From the IMG/VR virus record IMGVR_UViG_3300024520_000058: a DNA stretch of 20,000 nt; one strand, written 5' to 3'. This DNA is from an uncultured virus (IMG/VR IMGVR_UViG_3300024520_000058). Its lineage: Duplodnaviria > Heunggongvirae > Uroviricota > Caudoviricetes. The position numbers were made by a program, and so were the translations under genes. The notes beneath the pieces were generated by a model. The model saw only the letters and a program-made list of their open reading frames with translations. It did not search any database and was not told the DNA's origin. Positions 1,618 through 10,534 of this stretch are shown piece by piece (the stretch's first letter is position 1; the number at the start of each line of letters is the position of its first letter).

Positions 1618-3453
1618 CTAAAACACAAGCTCTTTCTGCTTGGTTGGTTGAGTTCTGATGAGCTGCTCGATGAACTTCTGACGAAGTACCGGCGCCGGTA
1701 AACCATTTATGTCTCTGCCCACTTTCCAGAGACTGTCTGCCTCACGCTTTTCTTCTACCTCATCCGGACGTCCCTGGCCACTCTCCAATAAGTCCATCAC
1801 CTGGTGGCCAATCCCCAGAGCAAACAGCCTGTCGTCCGGATGACCCTGGAGCTTCCCGTTCTTGTCCTGGACAAATCCCAGCGCTTCATTTATGCAACCC
1901 AGATCAGGTACCGATAACAGTAAATCACTTACAAGTGTCCTATGTGCCTCTACGATTGCCCGTCGCATTCCACCGATCACATACGTTCGGGTACCCACGT
2001 GGGTGTCCCAACCTGGCGCTGACTGAAACCGCAAACCCAATGCCAGGTCATTGGTTGATGGTCGATGGAAGATTCTACCTATGGGGTACTTCTCAATCCC
2101 CAGCTCTTTGTATCCCCGGATGAGGTACGTTTGTGCCTGTGCTCCATAGTTACGTATTTCAATCGCCATCCACGCAGGTTTGTAGTTGGGCTCCCCTTCA
2201 TGGTAGAAGTGCCCAAGAAGCCATAGCTCCCGCGCGAGCTGCTCTTCAGAGAGGTGTCCGTGGATACTTGCCACTATCCGACGAGTATCTTTCCGGAACA
2301 CGTATGCAGCAGTATAGTCTCCACCTGGTTTTCCCTCTGCTACATCCACTGCTATCACATACCCAGGACTTTGCTGGAGATGCTTCTTGGGAACAGGTAG
2401 CTCCCATATCTTCAGCATGTAATCTCCCTCTGGCAAATCAGGGAAATATCCCAGCTCATCAGTACTGTCCACAAACTTGACCATGGACCCAAGAGGTTCC
2501 TGGGGGTCGTGGATAAGAACACCTAACTTGGGGGTGGATACCTCCAGATGGTCCATGAGATGGGTACGCAGCTTTAGAAGTATGTCTCGGTCGAAGCAGC
2601 TTCTTCCGGTGAAAACCATGAAGAGCCCGGTCTCCCGGATGCGTATCTCCATAGCTCCCATACCTGCCATCATGTCCAGCGCCTGCTGCACGTTCATATA
2701 CTTTGCGTTTTCTCTCATGTTCACGTAATAGATCCACAGCTCTGGCCTGGAGCTCTGGTCCCTCTGCCAAGGTTCCACCAGGTCTTTGTGCATCCAGAGT
2801 ACGTCTCTTGCAAGTAGTGGGCTATCAGCATCCACAACTGGTGTCAAACAGATCCACATATAGCCTCCAGACCTGGTGAATCTCATTTTGATTTCGTTGT
2901 AGATGGAGCGAGGATGTGGCTCATCCATGAACACGAAGTTCTTCTTTGAACCCTTGTAGGCGTTGACACCCTGGGTGACCCACTTGCAGTTCCACCAGGA
3001 GGGATATCTGTCATCGATGCCTTTGAACATGGCGCGATGCATGATGCCTTCCCGTATGTCATAGTTTTTCACGTAGGGTCCCATTACGCGGTCGAAGATA
3101 GGACGAATATTATCACGCTGTACGTCCTGCGAATAACAGGACATCCAGCCTTCAATCCCCGTTGTAGGTATGCGAAGGTCCATGTAGGGATGAATTGTCT
3201 TGCCAGTAAGATTGCCGTCTTCGTCTTCTTCAGCAACGGTATGCCATCCGGCTCGCACCATTCCGCAGTAGCTCTTGCCAGATCCGTTGCCCCCAGCGAA
3301 GATTATCTCATGGTGGTCAATATCCTCAAAGAATGGAACTTGACCACCCTCATTTGGCGTGAAGGTGTCAAGAATGGTAGACTCTTCCACACTTTCGAAG
3401 ATCGCCGCCAGTTCGCGCTGTTCTTCCTCTGTGGTAAACAGATTCGCTTCCAT
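1618..3453 (-). CDS. terL: Terminase large subunit
   Basis: Walker A IFAGGNGSGKS, Walker B FVFMDEP, motif III CLTP; RNase H-like nuclease motifs IAVDVAEG-x3-GDYT, AIEIRNYG and HPDDRLFALGI; lies just upstream of the portal gene. Confidence 0.93.
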   Translation of the reverse strand: MEANLFTTEEEQRELAAIFESVEESTILDTFTPNEGGQVPFFEDIDHHEIIFAGGNGSGKSYCGMVRAGWHTVAEEDEDGNLTGKTIHPYMDLRIPTTGIEGWMSCYSQDVQRDNIRPIFDRVMGPYVKNYDIREGIMHRAMFKGIDDRYPSWWNCKWVTQGVNAYKGSKKNFVFMDEPHPRSIYNEIKMRFTRSGGYMWICLTPVVDADSPLLARDVLWMHKDLVEPWQRDQSSRPELWIYYVNMRENAKYMNVQQALDMMAGMGAMEIRIRETGLFMVFTGRSCFDRDILLKLRTHLMDHLEVSTPKLGVLIHDPQEPLGSMVKFVDSTDELGYFPDLPEGDYMLKIWELPVPKKHLQQSPGYVIAVDVAEGKPGGDYTAAYVFRKDTRRIVASIHGHLSEEQLARELWLLGHFYHEGEPNYKPAWMAIEIRNYGAQAQTYLIRGYKELGIEKYPIGRIFHRPSTNDLALGLRFQSAPGWDTHVGTRTYVIGGMRRAIVEAHRTLVSDLLLSVPDLGCINEALGFVQDKNGKLQGHPDDRLFALGIGHQVMDLLESGQGRPDEVEEKREADSLWKVGRDINGLPAPVLRQKFIEQLIRTQPTKQKELVF

Positions 3454-3498
3454 GATAACGGTATCCTACCTATGATTTTTTAAGGGCCCTTCAAAGCA

Positions 3499-3547
3499 AG
3501 GTTACCATATCTGACAGAGATTGTCAAGCCGAAATCCGGTTTTTTTT
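3499..3547 (-). promoter_or_regulatory. Sigma70-type promoter for the terL-portal operon, with operator-like inverted repeat and upstream A-tract
   Basis: Minus strand TTGACA (3527-3522), 17 bp, TAACCT (3504-3499), with TG of an extended -10. Inverted repeat TGACA-N5-TGTCA (3512-3526) overlaps the -35. A8 tract at 3540-3547 sits in the UP-element position. Confidence 0.7.
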
Positions 3548-3562
3548 GGGTTGGGAGGTTTC

Positions 3563-3629
3563 ACAGAATCCATGAGGTGTCACATGCAGGTAGGTAGGAT
3601 GCCAAAGTAACACCTCGAATGGATTCTGT
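3563..3629 (-). promoter_or_regulatory. Long RNA hairpin between dnaB and terL with an anti-SD loop
   Basis: Minus-strand arms ACAGAATCCAT-tc-GAGGTGTTAC and GTGACACCTC-ATGGATTCTGT (21 bp, one G-U, one 2-nt bulge). The loop contains ATCCTACCTA, the exact complement of TAGGTAGGAT at the terL ribosome-binding region (3463-3472). Confidence 0.7.
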
Positions 3630-3692
3630 AGTGAGGGGAGGGATCGGACGCCGCTTAAATCGCAAAATGCTCTGGTCGAATATGCGGAATGT

Positions 3693-5084
3693 TCAAGGCC
3701 TGGCCAGAGTCAAGGTTCTTTTGTCAGGCCGGGCTCGCTGTGACTGCTTGAACTTTGCTTCCATCAGATTGAAAGTTACAGGTATCATCCCTGTGGGTCC
3801 ATTGCGCTGCTTGCCAATGATGAGTTCGCAGGGCCCTCCCTGGCTGGGATTGCGGCTCTGGTAGTCCTCTCGGAAGATGAATAACACGATGTCCGCATCC
3901 TGCTCGATTGCTCCTGACTCACGTAAGTCAGAAAGCTGGGGCCGCTTATCAGGACGGTATTCAACGCTCCGATTGAGCTGCGATACAACGATGAACGGTA
4001 TGTCCAGGGACATAGCCAGAATTTTCAGTTCCCTGGAGATCTGAGTGATGTCATCAACACGCTTGCCAGTGGGTTTGGATGCGCTCATCAGCTGCAGGTA
4101 GTCTATGATCACCAGGTCAGGTTTCCCCTGCTTGCCAGTAATACGGAGAAGGTGCGACCGTACATCCCGGGGTGTGAGGTCTGGTGAGTCTTCTATATCA
4201 AATTTCGCTCCGCTTAGTCTACTTGCAGCAAGGGTCACGGCTGACCATTCCTTCTCCTGGATCTTTCCAACTCTGAAACGCAAGAACGGTATACCCGATT
4301 CTGAAGCAAGGATCCTGGTTACAAGCAGTTCTTTCTTCATCTCCAGAGAAAACATTACTGCGTGTTTCTTGCCTTCTACCGTGACATACTGTCCAAAATT
4401 CTGGACAAGAGTGCTCTTCCCTACACCTGGCCTGGCTGCCACAATTACCAAATCACCACCAGCAAGTCCTGTGGTCTGCAGGTCCAAGTACTTTATGCCC
4501 AAAGCCAGACCTACTATAGGATTGTCCTCCTCATTCATTTTTTGCAGTTTGTTGATTACCTGCTTTACACTCTCCTTCGTGGTAACCTGGTCCGGGAGGG
4601 TTGAGTTATTCAGTTCCAGAAGCTGATTCAAAGCCTCTGCCAATATCTTCTCTGAGGGTTGCTCGTTGTCGTAGGCACTCTCATTGATGTGAAAACTTGC
4701 GTAAATCAGCTGCCGCTTAATCGCTTCCTCAATAATCATCTCAGCATAGTACTTCACATTGGCTGATGAAGGACTGGCGTCTATCAGCTCGTTGACGTAT
4801 GGAACGCCGCCCACTTTCTCAAGATGTCCGTTACGCTCCAATCTCTTGGTTACCATCAGCAGATCTACCGGCTCATCGTCATCGAATAGCTCCTTGATAA
4901 TATTCCAGATTTTGTTATGCCGCTCTCGATAGAATACCTCGTCACCTCTGATAAGCAACATACACTCAGCGATTGAACCTCTCTGATCGTCATCAAGGAC
5001 CATCAGACCCCCAAGTAGAGCTCGCTCAGCATCGATGTCTTGCGGCGCTACTCTATCCAGTTGTATGCGAGTTCCGTTATTCAT
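3693..5084 (-). CDS. dnaB: Replicative DNA helicase DnaB (phage-encoded)
   Basis: N-terminal PQDIDAERALLG, Walker A AARPGVGKS, FSLEM, IIDYLQLM, SQLNR...RPQLSDLRESGAIEQDAD, KQRNGPTG. Confidence 0.97.
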   Translation of the reverse strand: MNNGTRIQLDRVAPQDIDAERALLGGLMVLDDDQRGSIAECMLLIRGDEVFYRERHNKIWNIIKELFDDDEPVDLLMVTKRLERNGHLEKVGGVPYVNELIDASPSSANVKYYAEMIIEEAIKRQLIYASFHINESAYDNEQPSEKILAEALNQLLELNNSTLPDQVTTKESVKQVINKLQKMNEEDNPIVGLALGIKYLDLQTTGLAGGDLVIVAARPGVGKSTLVQNFGQYVTVEGKKHAVMFSLEMKKELLVTRILASESGIPFLRFRVGKIQEKEWSAVTLAASRLSGAKFDIEDSPDLTPRDVRSHLLRITGKQGKPDLVIIDYLQLMSASKPTGKRVDDITQISRELKILAMSLDIPFIVVSQLNRSVEYRPDKRPQLSDLRESGAIEQDADIVLFIFREDYQSRNPSQGGPCELIIGKQRNGPTGMIPVTFNLMEAKFKQSQRARPDKRTLTLARP

Positions 5085-5898
5085 CCGTCTCCCCTAGTGC
5101 TGTCATGAAACTGTAATTGCCATATTCCACCTCTGTTCCAGTCACCTGGAGGTAGATCCAGGGCAAAGCTTGAAAGTCTGGAAGCTTCTTAATCTTGCGC
5201 GCTTTATCCAACCAACGAACGATCTCTCTATACTCAATTCCCATAGCCTGAAATTCCACCATTACCTGACGTAAATCTGGCAGGAACAGATAGGGCTCAT
5301 AACCTGCAAATTCATGGTTCAAATCCTGACCCCATTTGTCAGCCTCATTGATGGGCTCAAAAGGTCGTGAATATTCCTGTTCCCCATCACCATAAACACC
5401 GTTTTGTTGTTCCGCGTTGTGTTTAAAGTTTTCTGTATAAGGATGAGATCTGTCCTCTCGTACGGTACTCGATGTCCTCTCGTACGGTACTTTATGTCCT
5501 CTCGTACGGTACTGATCTGTCCTCTCGTACGGTACTGATGTCCTCTCGTACGGTACTTTATGTCCTCTCGTACGGTACTTTCCCAGCCAGTTTAGCACAA
5601 ATTCGTAGTCCAATTCGTAGCTTGGTGACGATCCTTTTCCACGCGTATTTTGAGTGATAAAAGAGTGTTCAGAAAGGGTCTTGAGATGGCGGGTTATATT
5701 CCTCGTATTCAGCCCTGTTCTGGATGCCAAATGGAGGTTCGGAATAACAAGAGCATCGTCTGTCCAATACTCGCCATTATTCTCGCCATTGAATATCTCC
5801 AATATGTAGAAACCCAGACACTTATGTACTGAATTCAGATCATCCAGGGAGAACAGACATTTTGTACAATTCATGAAATTGATGGGATTGGTTGACAA
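5077..5898 (-). CDS. Phage replication initiator (lambda O-like layout, N-terminal winged helix)
   Basis: TTG start with SD AAGGAGG 6 nt upstream; wHTH-like LASRTGLNTRNITRHLKTLSEHSFI; internal iteron array; overlaps dnaB by 8 bp. Confidence 0.8.
   Translation of the reverse strand: MSTNPINFMNCTKCLFSLDDLNSVHKCLGFYILEIFNGENNGEYWTDDALVIPNLHLASRTGLNTRNITRHLKTLSEHSFITQNTRGKGSSPSYELDYEFVLNWLGKYRTRGHKVPYERTSVPYERTDQYRTRGHKVPYERTSSTVREDRSHPYTENFKHNAEQQNGVYGDGEQEYSRPFEPINEADKWGQDLNHEFAGYEPYLFLPDLRQVMVEFQAMGIEYREIVRWLDKARKIKKLPDFQALPWIYLQVTGTEVEYGNYSFMTALGETDE
5447..5579. repeat. Iteron array, putative replication origin: 6 x TGTCCTCTCGTACGGTACT
   Basis: Identical 19-bp copies start at 5451, 5473, 5495, 5518, 5539 and 5561 (periods 22, 22, 23, 21, 22). 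An AT-rich stretch is adjacent (~5420-5440) and the array lies inside the initiator gene. Confidence 0.9.
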
Positions 5899-5904
5899 GG
5901 ATAG

Positions 5905-6000
5905 CCTCCTTCAGTGCGGACTCGGCAATGGTGGACGACTGAAGGGGCGTCCACCACCGAGTCACAGGCTGCTGAACAGGGAGCTTATCCCCTGTTAGCA
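5905..6000 (-). promoter_or_regulatory. Structured 5' leader of the replication initiator mRNA (two hairpins, anti-SD in loop)
   Basis: Hairpin 1: TGCT-AACAGGG / CCCTGTT-c-AGCA (6000-5970). Hairpin 2: GACTCGG-TGGTGGACG / CGTCCACCA-ttg-CCGAGTC (5963-5919), whose loop CCCCTTCAGT is complementary to ACTGAAGG (5915-5908) overlapping the SD. Confidence 0.75.
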
Positions 6001-6026
6001 TGGGCAAGTGTGAATTTTCTATCTGC

Positions 6027-6055
6027 ATTATAGCAGGTGATACCTGTTAAGTCAA
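6027..6055 (-). promoter_or_regulatory. Strong sigma70 promoter of the rep-dnaB operon with a palindromic operator in the spacer
   Basis: TTGACT (6055-6050), 17 bp, TATAAT (6032-6027), with TG of an extended -10; the spacer contains CAGGT-atc-ACCTG (6046-6034). Confidence 0.85.
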
Positions 6056-6061
6056 GGTCAG

Positions 6062-6095
6062 TAGAAAATGGGGCCGGTCTATTCCCCAGCCCCAT
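6062..6095 (-). terminator. Rho-independent terminator
   Basis: Stem ATGGGGCTGG / CCGGCCCCAT (one G-U) with an 8-nt loop, running into TTTTCT; lies directly upstream of the next promoter. Confidence 0.75.
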
Positions 6096-6096
6096 C

Positions 6097-6164
6097 GCTT
6101 CCGCGTTCTTCTGGGAGGTAACTTGGAAGGAAACGCAGAAGCTATCGGCACACGTCTGCACCGA
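6097..6164 (-). ncRNA. Structured 3' UTR element, candidate regulatory RNA (two hairpins before the terminator)
   Basis: Hairpin A: TCGGTGCA-gacg-TGTGCCGA (6164-6145). Hairpin B: GCTTCTGCGTT-tc-CTTC / GAAG-AACGCGGAAGC (6142-6097) with loop CAAGTTACCTCCCA. The wobble positions are G-U only on the minus strand. Confidence 0.55.
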
Positions 6165-6563
6165 CTACTTAATACTCAATATGAACAATGGTCGTAACCC
6201 GTCGCGCTCTGCATCCAGGAGATCTCTCATCTCTTCCTTAGTGCAGGTGAACTGCCCCTTCTTTTTCTTCCCTGTGTACATTCCATCTTCAAGTGACGAC
6301 AGGTTAAGTGGATGTTTGTCAGGCGTCTGTTCCACCGGAGCAGCTTCCCCCACTTCCTCCAAAGCTTTCTCAATAGCTTCAGATGCTTCCTTGGCTGCCT
6401 GCTGCTCCTTATCGTCTTCCTCAGCAACTGCTTCCTTCGCATTCAGGGCCAGTTCTTCTTGGCTGGATTCCCCTGGTTGCTTGTCCTGGGGTTTACGGAT
6501 GTATTTCATCATACCTTCTGCGTCAATATAGCAGTAAAACTCGAGACTCACTTCAGCTTTCAT
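6165..6563 (-). CDS. Hypothetical acidic protein (132 aa)
   Basis: Start reassigned to ATG 6563 (SD GGAGG); Glu/Ala-rich middle; last gene before the terminator. Confidence 0.7.
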   Translation of the reverse strand: MKAEVSLEFYCYIDAEGMMKYIRKPQDKQPGESSQEELALNAKEAVAEEDDKEQQAAKEASEAIEKALEEVGEAAPVEQTPDKHPLNLSSLEDGMYTGKKKKGQFTCTKEEMRDLLDAERDGLRPLFILSIK

Positions 6564-7047
6564 CGTTTTCTTCCTCCATCTCTTCATCGTTCACAATAGG
6601 TAGCTGGCGCATGGGGGAGATGGCTACAATACCACGCTCATCGATGCCCACGTGCCGCACTTCTCCCCAAATTCTATGGTAGACACTTTCGTCACCGGTG
6701 ATAAGACGCACAGCGGCTAAGACCTTAGAACGATGCGGATCCAGAACCGGATGATTATGTGACTCTGGGGTCAGCTTCTTCAAGAGGATGCCCAACTCAG
6801 CACGCGATTGTTCTTTCGCCTCTATCTCTTTGCTGATGACCTGCATCGTATCTCTTATCCGAGAGACCTGCTCATCATCGTGGACACCCAGGAATCTCCG
6901 CAGAGCGTCTTTCGTCTCTAATGTTTCTTCCACGTCTTCCTTTGGGAAGAAAACACGATAGCTCCCGTCTTCCAACTCATCGATTAGAAGAAGGTCGTCC
7001 ACAAAATCGTAGCCTTTCTTCCTTACTTCATCCCACAGTTTGCTCAT
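6553..7047 (-). CDS. Hypothetical protein (164 aa)
   Basis: ATGA overlap with the upstream gene; SD AAGGA. Confidence 0.7.
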   Translation of the reverse strand: MSKLWDEVRKKGYDFVDDLLLIDELEDGSYRVFFPKEDVEETLETKDALRRFLGVHDDEQVSRIRDTMQVISKEIEAKEQSRAELGILLKKLTPESHNHPVLDPHRSKVLAAVRLITGDESVYHRIWGEVRHVGIDERGIVAISPMRQLPIVNDEEMEEENDES

Positions 7048-10075: not shown

Positions 10076-10429
10076 CTATGCGATTGCGGTCTGCAACACT
10101 TCCCTCATACGATTTTCCCAGAAGACCTCTCCCTCTGCAAGTTCAGCTGCCGTCAGGGTTTCCTCCTCAACCGACCTGCCATCGAAGACAATCCTCTGCC
10201 AGACGTCTTTGAATGCCATAGCCCGCGCCTGGCAATGTTGGAATCCATTAGTGTCCCGCGCCTTTGCTTTCAGATTGGCATCTTCCCTGGCAGCTACCAT
10301 CTGACCGTATGCCCACAGGCCAAACCTGTCGGCCACGGCATTTATGAGGTCATCTACGCTTTGTTCCAGCAGGTCTCCACTGGCTAATTCCTCCATAATA
10401 TCTCGAACACTTTCCTCAAATATCCCCAT
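10076..10429 (-). CDS. Hypothetical protein (~117 aa)
   Basis: ATG 10429 or TTG 10438, both with purine-rich upstream sequence; helical composition. Confidence 0.7.
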   Translation of the reverse strand: MGIFEESVRDIMEELASGDLLEQSVDDLINAVADRFGLWAYGQMVAAREDANLKAKARDTNGFQHCQARAMAFKDVWQRIVFDGRSVEEETLTAAELAEGEVFWENRMREVLQTAIA

Positions 10430-10534
10430 CTTCCTCAATTCCTTTCCTCAATCCCTCAATCCCTTGAGGAGGCTCCTGCCGGGCACCACACCATCACATT
10501 CCAACCGGATAATGTTCCGACAGAAGCCAATGCG

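Follow-up and report, generated by a model that had tools for sequence, protein, structure and literature searches.

Can the leader of a phage replication gene carry an RNA loop that closes the ribosome-binding site of that same gene? The question is posed by a stretch of DNA, 20,000 nucleotides (nt) in length and here called the window, from an uncultured virus of the Caudoviricetes (IMG/VR record IMGVR_UViG_3300024520_000058). The phage is unclassified and was seen in seawater metagenomes. All positions given below are those of the whole window. On the minus strand, a gene starting with TTG at position 5898 follows a leader with two hairpins, and the apical loop of the second is complementary to the Shine-Dalgarno region of the gene. 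The original prediction, made from the letters of the sequence, saw in this leader a two-state switch, possibly riboswitch-like or antisense-controlled, that limits synthesis of a replication initiator. We have followed up this idea computationally; the basis throughout is one genome, two loci and energy models. Tentatively, and with a confidence that falls just short of even, we propose that the loop is a functional, gene-specific brake on translation of the initiator.

A loop in the leader is complementary to the ribosome-binding site

The elements of the leader, with stem lengths in base pairs (bp), are the following.

Positions 5968 to 6005, minus strand: leader hairpin 1, a 12-bp stem with one bulged C and the loop AUAAGC.
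Positions 5915 to 5966, minus strand: leader hairpin 2, about 20 bp in total, -28.3 kcal/mol when folded alone.
Positions 5938 to 5947, minus strand: apical loop of hairpin 2, CCCCUUCAGU, 10 nt, pyrimidine-rich and complementary to the ribosome-binding site.
Positions 5905 to 5915, minus strand: the target ACUGAAGG (5915-5908), overlapping the Shine-Dalgarno sequence AAGGAGG (5911-5905).

Read in the direction of transcription, the leader has 15 unpaired nt, followed by hairpin 1, hairpin 2, AAGGAGG and TTG. Hairpin 2 is built from 4 bp (UGUG/CGCA), a 7-bp outer stem (GACUCGG/CCGAGUC), a 3-nt bulge (5928-5926) and a 9-bp inner stem (UGGUGGACG/CGUCCACCA). The 151-nt leader region has a folding energy of -51 kcal/mol, compared with a mean of -38.7 kcal/mol for shuffled sequences (z = -3.19), and none of 200 shuffles was as stable. 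Together with the individual folds, and the promoter described below, this bears out the two-hairpin leader at the place where it had been proposed.

Within the loop, the segment CCUUCAGU is an exact 8-nt complement of ACUGAAGG, with a pairing energy of -10.5 kcal/mol. Hence, the 8-bp pairing of a 10-nt loop over the Shine-Dalgarno, as first described, is confirmed. In this register, four of the seven Shine-Dalgarno bases are covered. In another, in which one A is bulged, pairing extends to the full 10 nt of the loop (-14.0 kcal/mol) and coverage of the Shine-Dalgarno is complete (7/7). The TTG start with its Shine-Dalgarno is borne out. The ribosome site is a strong one, pairing with the anti-Shine-Dalgarno of 16S ribosomal RNA at -11.7 kcal/mol, and AAGGAGG lies 6 nt before the TTG. 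Part of the site also forms a local 5-bp hairpin, AAGGA/UCCUU (UCCUU at 5901-5897; -4.9 kcal/mol), that takes in two bases of the start codon. Only C-G-C links the stem base of hairpin 2 to the target. The steric argument that came with the original prediction, in which a linker of 3 nt obliges the outer stem to open before loop and target can meet, holds for this stem of about 20 bp.

An upstream frame, which lacks a Shine-Dalgarno, begins at an AUG (6001) enclosed by hairpin 1. It runs to a TGA at 5840 and ends 56 nt inside the downstream gene. Two further ideas about the hairpins were dropped. The first was attenuation by an intrinsic terminator; a U-run follows neither leader hairpin. The second was a kink-turn at the 3-nt bulge, bringing the loop to the stem base; there are no G-A pairs after the bulge.

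We then asked how far the pairing exceeds chance. In composition-preserving shuffles, a match of 8 nt was reached in 974 of 200000 cases when the loop was shuffled, and in 113 of 200000 when the ribosome-site window was shuffled. The loop is also selective. Compared with 29 ribosome-site windows, it matched its own gene over 8 nt and the next best over 6 nt. On inspection of the list of 29 starts, most are preceded by GGAG or AGGA. Hence, occlusion of the Shine-Dalgarno should matter in this phage. We conclude that the pairing of hairpin 2 is real and uncommon. Alone, it goes moderately beyond chance and is not decisive, because the hairpin was picked from a very large scan.

The arrangement recurs at the terminase gene

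The same hypothesis, held fixed, was applied to the rest of the window. We scanned all genes with a 250-nt upstream region inside the window, looking for stretches of 8 nt or more in which that region is complementary to the ribosome-site window. Four genes scored. In two of them the complement lay within upstream coding sequence, which is about what chance predicts. The other two correspond to the two long non-coding regions, namely the initiator leader and the spacer between dnaB and the terminase gene. The features of the latter are listed here.

Positions 3562 to 3630, minus strand: second hairpin, between dnaB and the terminase gene, -34.1 kcal/mol (z = -7.66; 0/200 shuffles).
Positions 3463 to 3472, minus strand: UAGGUAGGAU, purine-rich region of the ribosome site; its end lies 9 nt upstream of the terminase ATG.
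Positions 1618 to 3453, minus strand: terminase large subunit gene, with its ATG at 3453 (phrog_2, 2.2e-07).

The hairpin at 3630-3562 shares the architecture of leader hairpin 2. A 12-bp lower stem is followed by a 2-nt bulge, a 10-bp upper stem and a short GCA/UGC helix. The loop of 11 nt is again pyrimidine-rich (UCCUACCUACC) and, within it, AUCCUACCUA (3600-3591) is a perfect 10-nt complement of the terminase ribosome site. Composition-preserving shuffles reached 10 nt in 90 of 200000 cases for the loop region and 44 of 200000 for the ribosome-site window. Against the same 29 windows, this loop matched its own gene over 10 nt, with a next best match of 6 nt. Neither of the two loop/target motifs recurs as a DNA word in the window, which argues for a role at the level of RNA.

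At the terminase, about 90 nt lie between the base of the hairpin and its target, so pairing within one molecule would be unhindered. The net energy of loop pairing is about -7.0 kcal/mol. The Shine-Dalgarno here is weak, at -6.4 kcal/mol with the anti-Shine-Dalgarno. Hence, in the energy model, the loop should outcompete the anti-Shine-Dalgarno for the site. Hairpin and target are separated by a possible promoter, with TTGACA at 3526-3521 and TAACCT after a spacer of 17 nt. It falls below the threshold of our promoter scan; transcripts from it would escape the loop. The same spacer has, on the plus strand, a terminator-like hairpin with a T run (3526-3542), and a plus-strand gene nearby is not evident.

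This second case, found under a fixed hypothesis, is our main reason to think that the complementarity has been selected and acts as RNA. It also bears on an alternative, in which the hairpins serve some other RNA purpose and the complementarity is incidental. Such purposes might be RNase III-type processing, stabilisation of the mRNA, pausing, or binding of a phage or host protein. Both of our hairpins have about 20-25 bp and a small bulge in mid-stem, which is reminiscent of the RNase III sites of phages T7 and lambda. This explanation would also suit the dominance of the nested fold, described below, and a chance rate of 8-nt complements that is not negligible at the scale of the scan. Conversely, it must accommodate two independent cases in which a loop specifically matches its own gene, over 8 nt in one and 10 nt in the other, and processing and pairing are not mutually exclusive. 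For mRNA stabilisation in particular, a hairpin is expected at the extreme 5' end; neither of ours is so placed, and 15 unpaired nt precede hairpin 1. We consider an incidental complementarity unlikely, while giving it serious weight.

Possible routes to repression of the initiator

How might the loop act? Where the loop of hairpin 2 pairs with ACUGAAGG(A)GG, the Shine-Dalgarno would be hidden from the 30S subunit and less initiator would be made. Where the loop is unpaired, the strong AAGGAGG, weakly masked by the 5-bp local hairpin, would allow the weak TTG start to be used. The pairing could be reached by two routes. Within one molecule, the lower stem (7-11 bp) would open and an H-type pseudoknot would form on the 9-bp upper stem. 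Between molecules, where there is no steric obstacle, the hairpin could act as part of a different transcript or as a stable fragment released by processing. By this second route, hairpin RNA would build up with transcription and exert negative feedback on initiator translation, like plasmid copy-control RNAs. Because transcription reaches the lower stem ahead of the target, the intramolecular OFF state would be kinetically hindered. We regard action between molecules as an equally good route, or a better one.

With the lower stem open, the pseudoknot would consist of a 9-bp stem S1, a 2-nt loop L1, an 8-bp stem S2 and a 13-nt loop L3, which we judge feasible by the geometric rules for such folds. 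We estimated its energy from ViennaRNA stacking terms, less a hairpin-loop term of 6.0 kcal/mol, with a pseudoknot penalty of 7-11.3 kcal/mol, as in published models. Roughly, the pseudoknot differs from the nested fold by -0.9 to +3.4 kcal/mol if lowest-energy structures are compared, and by about +2 to +6 kcal/mol if the ensemble opening cost is used. A second state of this kind is thermodynamically conceivable in these models. Pairing between molecules, over 8 bp, has a net energy of about -5.8 kcal/mol after opening costs.

Several points weigh against a brake of this kind, and some concern the energetics. The ground state predicted for the leader is the nested fold with its two hairpins. 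Within 6 kcal/mol of it there are 373090 suboptimal structures, and all classes inspected among them retain both hairpins. To form the pseudoknot, the ensemble would have to be opened at a cost of 15.4 kcal/mol. In stepwise folding, the lower stem closes before the target has been transcribed, and conversion to the pseudoknot would be slow, with 7-11 bp to melt. The value of -5.8 kcal/mol for pairing between molecules would mean a weak affinity, unless loop geometry and pre-organisation, or a chaperone, help. Of the two-state switch first proposed, the pseudoknot state thus stays conceivable, while refolding into an alternative nested state finds no counterpart among the structure classes inspected.

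Other such points concern chance and conservation. We surveyed hairpins with a stem of at least 8 bp and a loop of 6-12 nt in 946 kb of DNA, scoring complements within 60 nt downstream. An 8-nt loop complement was found for 3 of 422 hairpins, initiator hairpin 2 included; the chance rate is about 0.5% of comparable hairpins (2/421 others), and hairpin 2 was chosen out of a very large scan. About six intergenic minus-strand hairpins were inspected in the window (6145-6096, the terminator upstream of the leader, hairpin 1, hairpin 2, 3630-3562 and 10528-10471). In only two can the loop pair over 8 nt or more with the ribosome site that follows. Furthermore, a HMMER search of 1.84 billion representative proteins returned the initiator itself and no homologue, and the contigs of four seawater runs over 5000-6700 show no leader variants.

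The same four runs show three single-contig differences over this region, all outside the leader. Searches of IMG/VR for the pattern of hairpin 2, and for that of loop plus target, gave 0 matches. Similarly, blastn of 5000-6700 gave no match in GenBank phages and none in PLSDB plasmids.

One of the hairpins inspected has a different design. In the intergenic region 10425-10530 of the minus strand, the hairpin 10528-10471 has a 12-bp lower stem, after which CCUCAA pairs linearly with UUGAGG. UUGAGG occurs there in three copies, which take in the Shine-Dalgarno of the gene that follows (start at 10438 or 10429). This is another arrangement that appears to hide a Shine-Dalgarno, linear rather than loop-based.

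The downstream gene looks like a replication initiator

The gene behind the leader, and the features that bear on its identity, are as follows.

Positions 5077 to 5898, minus strand: replication-initiator candidate, 273 amino acids (aa), an orphan, with TTG start at 5898.
Positions 5452 to 5579, inside the initiator gene: origin-like array of six identical 18-bp iterons, spaced by 21-23 bp (mostly 22).
Positions 3693 to 5084, minus strand: DnaB-type replicative helicase (DnaB_C 2.2e-83, DnaB 2.6e-25; phrog_19).

There are six iteron matches, a number reached in none of 200 shuffles. The iterons encode a repeated peptide, VPYERT, within the initiator frame. Past the last of them, along the gene, the sequence shows an AT-rich stretch (5400-5446). 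Judged by this layout, a lambda-like origin lies inside the gene. The start of the helicase gene overlaps the 3' end of the initiator gene. Neighbours of the protein in the ESM-Atlas belong to the families HTH_36, Phage_rep_O and RepA_N, which we use as a lead only. Because of the internal iterons, the AT-rich stretch, the overlap with dnaB and these neighbours, the orphan looks like a replication initiator. The original assignment of the gene, with a leader tied to initiator synthesis, is supported by the six iterons, the adjoining dnaB and the ESM-Atlas neighbours.

No Pfam family matched the initiator at E up to 0.01; hits to winged-helix families below this threshold cover residues 28-109 (E 0.055-0.28). 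There was no significant match in PHROG. No relatives were found in IMG/VR, and in a search of 5.8 billion clusters the protein stood alone among 167 candidates. A single-sequence AlphaFold2 model had a mean predicted local distance difference test score (pLDDT) of 37, too poor for use. In this low-confidence model, residues 21-96 have the order helix-helix-helix-strand-strand, which is merely compatible with a winged helix.

The start codon also needs comment. Public gene calls give a protein of 265 aa that starts with an ATG at codon 9 (5874). This ATG has no Shine-Dalgarno, whereas AAGGAGG is at ideal spacing from the TTG. Hence, TTG 5898 is probably the true start. The layout is identical at another TTG gene of the phage (start 7828), and it agrees with the GGAG- or AGGA-type sites that precede most of the 29 starts.

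The iterons raised two further possibilities. Autoregulation by an iteron at the promoter was dropped; there are no iteron copies outside 5452-5579. Alternatively, the hairpins could work at the level of DNA, for instance by folding into a signal near the origin that serves priming or the loading of helicase, or as an inverted repeat to which a protein binds. Some origins are flanked by long inverted repeats, and the leader hairpins are about 350 bp from the iteron array. We find this very improbable. Complementarity between a loop and a ribosome site has no meaning in DNA, the second example is at the terminase, far from the origin, and neither motif recurs as a family of binding sites.

The initiator operon has a predicted promoter of its own

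Upstream of the leader are three features.

Positions 6062 to 6095, minus strand: intrinsic terminator, with arms 6095-6086 and 6077-6068 followed by UUUUCU, identified from inverted repeat and fold.
Positions 6027 to 6055, minus strand: sigma-70-type promoter TTGACT-17-TATAAT, with an extended -10 TG, matching 11/12 of the consensus.
Positions 6031 to 6049, no strand assigned: operator-like dyad TAnCAGGT-N3-ACCTGnTA, between the -35 and -10 boxes.

The promoter ranks best among nine promoter-like sites in the window. Transcription is predicted to start near A6020, which is the left edge that the original prediction gave to the leader. The dyad is likely an operator for a repressor; the perfect sequence CAGGTNNNACCTG occurs once in the window, at 6034-6046. 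The terminator appears, from its sequence, to end the upstream operon and insulate the replication operon. Between the stop codon of a 140-aa gene and this terminator there is an 11-bp hairpin (6096-6145, minus strand). Its large, pyrimidine-rich loop contains ACCUCCC and UCCUUCC, resembling an anti-Shine-Dalgarno.

Classical antisense control, of the kind exerted by CopA or Inc RNAs in plasmids, would require plus-strand transcription through 5900-5970 and binding of the product to the loop of hairpin 2 or to the ribosome site. In its favour, hairpin 2 copied from the plus strand would expose the loop ACUGAAGGGG, able to kiss the sense loop, and a perfect TTGACA is present on the plus strand at 5893-5898. 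Conversely, the hexamers 16-18 nt past this TTGACA are poor -10 boxes, and no plus-strand promoter-like site with at least 9/12 matches was found in 5000-7000. No U-run follows either plus-strand hairpin. Rfam antisense families miss the hairpins; a weak PtaRNA1 hit (E = 0.57) falls over the terminator. The antisense control raised in the original prediction is therefore not supported, and we think it most improbable.

The Rfam search suggested with the original prediction also bears on riboswitches. None of 4227 families matched the hairpins at gathering score. At E up to 10 over 5800-6120 there were two weak hits, both over the terminator, and again 0/4227 families matched the hairpins. A ligand-sensing riboswitch, with an aptamer made from the two hairpins, would suit a long structured leader before a regulated gene, and several classes of small riboswitch use, as their expression platform, a pseudoknot in which the Shine-Dalgarno is concealed. 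Set against this, the leader has two plain, near-perfect hairpins, with neither a junction nor conserved internal loops, and nothing in it points to a ligand pocket. A replication initiator offers no metabolic logic, and there are no relatives from which conserved unpaired positions could be defined. We give riboswitch-like control hardly any credence, and this part of the original prediction is not upheld.

Comparison with known systems

ColIb-P9 repZ and the C4 RNA offer precedents for the proposed logic (PMC4705826, PMC5320573). The closest systems in logic are those that control rep in plasmid ColIb-P9 (IncI-alpha) and in IncB and IncL/M plasmids. In these, a stem-loop forms a pseudoknot with sequence beside the rep Shine-Dalgarno, and an antisense Inc RNA competes with this (PMC4705826, PMC8053102). 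Like these plasmids, the phage has an initiator gene with a non-AUG start and a leader loop complementary to the 5' edge of the Shine-Dalgarno. Local structure takes in the Shine-Dalgarno and start codon in both, and control is translational, which for the phage is a prediction. There are also differences. The plasmid pseudoknot activates, whereas the phage loop covers the Shine-Dalgarno and repression is expected. The plasmids need translation of a leader peptide, whereas no usable leader peptide was found in the phage leader. The plasmid antisense RNA is separately transcribed, whereas no phage antisense promoter was found in 5000-7000. Note that the TTG start matches the plasmid pattern, while the Shine-Dalgarno is strong (-11.7 kcal/mol) and its mask amounts to just -4.9 kcal/mol. 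Finally, unlike the plasmid elements, this one belongs to a phage whose initiator gene contains a lambda-like origin.

This comparison suggests a further alternative, an activating pseudoknot as at ColIb-P9 repZ. In that case the AAGGA/UCCUU hairpin would be disrupted once the loop paired, leaving the TTG accessible. The weak non-AUG start would fit, as would the local hairpin of -4.9 kcal/mol that ties part of the Shine-Dalgarno to two start-codon bases. The loop target is at the 5' edge of the Shine-Dalgarno, like the CGCC target described for ColIb-P9 (PMC4705826). Conversely, the loop covers 4/7 or 7/7 of the Shine-Dalgarno bases and so would hide more than it frees. The Shine-Dalgarno is strong rather than weak. 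There is also no translatable leader peptide that ends near the ribosome site; the sole upstream frame is 6001-5840, with its AUG in hairpin 1. We judge activation by the loop to be highly unlikely, and return to repression for the remaining comparisons.

In phage P4, the CI RNA controls the replication operon. This RNA, and C4 of phages P1 and P7, are immunity RNAs that are co-transcribed with and processed from their own target transcript (PMC5320573). Like them, the phage element is an upstream RNA of the same strand and same transcript, with a loop complementary to the downstream ribosome-binding site (PMC5320573). Unlike C4, which is a three-stem RNA with loops a' and b', the phage has a single hairpin and one loop. 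The C4 covariance model found no match over 5800-6120, at gathering score or E up to 10. The phage target is also only 3 nt from the base of its hairpin, a further difference from the C4/CI RNAs, and no evidence of RNase P processing emerged for the phage hairpin.

The E. coli rpsO operator offers a parallel for two states of one leader. There, a double hairpin is reported to be in equilibrium with a pseudoknot that protein S15 stabilises (PMC3985624). Two-hairpin and pseudoknot states are likewise conceivable here and, on the same account, a factor that favours the pseudoknot represses. The phage leader differs in having no sequence or family relation to rpsO, in a lower stem that must open first, and in having no known binding protein.

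For the gene itself, the model is lambda O. In lambda, the origin is inside the O gene. The phage gene similarly has iterons inside the initiator frame, followed by an AT-rich stretch, and a winged-helix-like N-terminus (from the sub-threshold Pfam hits and Phage_rep_O neighbours). Unlike lambda O, it has no significant Pfam or PHROG match, and this phage encodes its own DnaB beside the initiator. To our knowledge, no structured leader of such a kind has been described for lambda O. In a literature search on pseudoknot and Shine-Dalgarno control of replication initiators, we found no phage initiator leaders. We class the element as a variant of known logic, and not with any of the families compared (ColIb-P9, C4/CI and rpsO).

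Genome context

All recognisable genes, from Pfam and PHROG searches of the window, are on the minus strand. In order of transcription they are as follows.

Minus strand, first: methyltransferase-like protein, endolysin-like protein, RusA-like resolvase and several unknowns (Pfam/PHROG).
Minus strand, next: the 273-aa orphan (5898-5077), the DnaB-type helicase (5084-3693) and the terminase large subunit (3453-1618).

After the terminase there is a weak portal match (phrog_156, 0.00064). No terminase relatives were found in IMG/VR. For DnaB, neighbours were fetched from at least 80 loci in IMG/VR and at least 80 in metagenomes. Identity was 32-45% among the matches listed; hence, these loci are too distant to be expected to carry the same leader. 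With initiator and terminase lacking IMG/VR relatives, and the helicase at most 45% identical among the matches listed, the phage lineage appears to be essentially unsampled.

Implications

Taken further, the two loci would point to a family of long bulged hairpins that are co-transcribed, gene-specific RNAs directed against ribosome sites. Each might be excised as a small stable hairpin, for example by a double-strand-specific nuclease at the mid-stem bulge, and with its loop silence the ribosome site of the next gene on other molecules, here those of the initiator and the terminase. The outcome would be delayed negative feedback on replication, and control over the timing of packaging, needing no antisense promoter and unrelated to C4/CI. 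We hold this extended scheme to be doubtful, and offer it as speculation.

If the pairing by the loop of hairpin 2 is functional, a marine phage of lytic type, with an origin like that of lambda, would limit its initiator by an RNA mechanism of a type so far tied to plasmid copy control and to P1/P4 immunity. The terminase would be under the same trick. A long hairpin with a loop complementary to the ribosome site that follows would be a simple and portable design for timing replication and packaging. Because both partners are short and defined, the design is open to compensatory mutation of loop and target. It could also be searched for, by structure and self-complementarity, in phage genomes whose proteins have no homologues.

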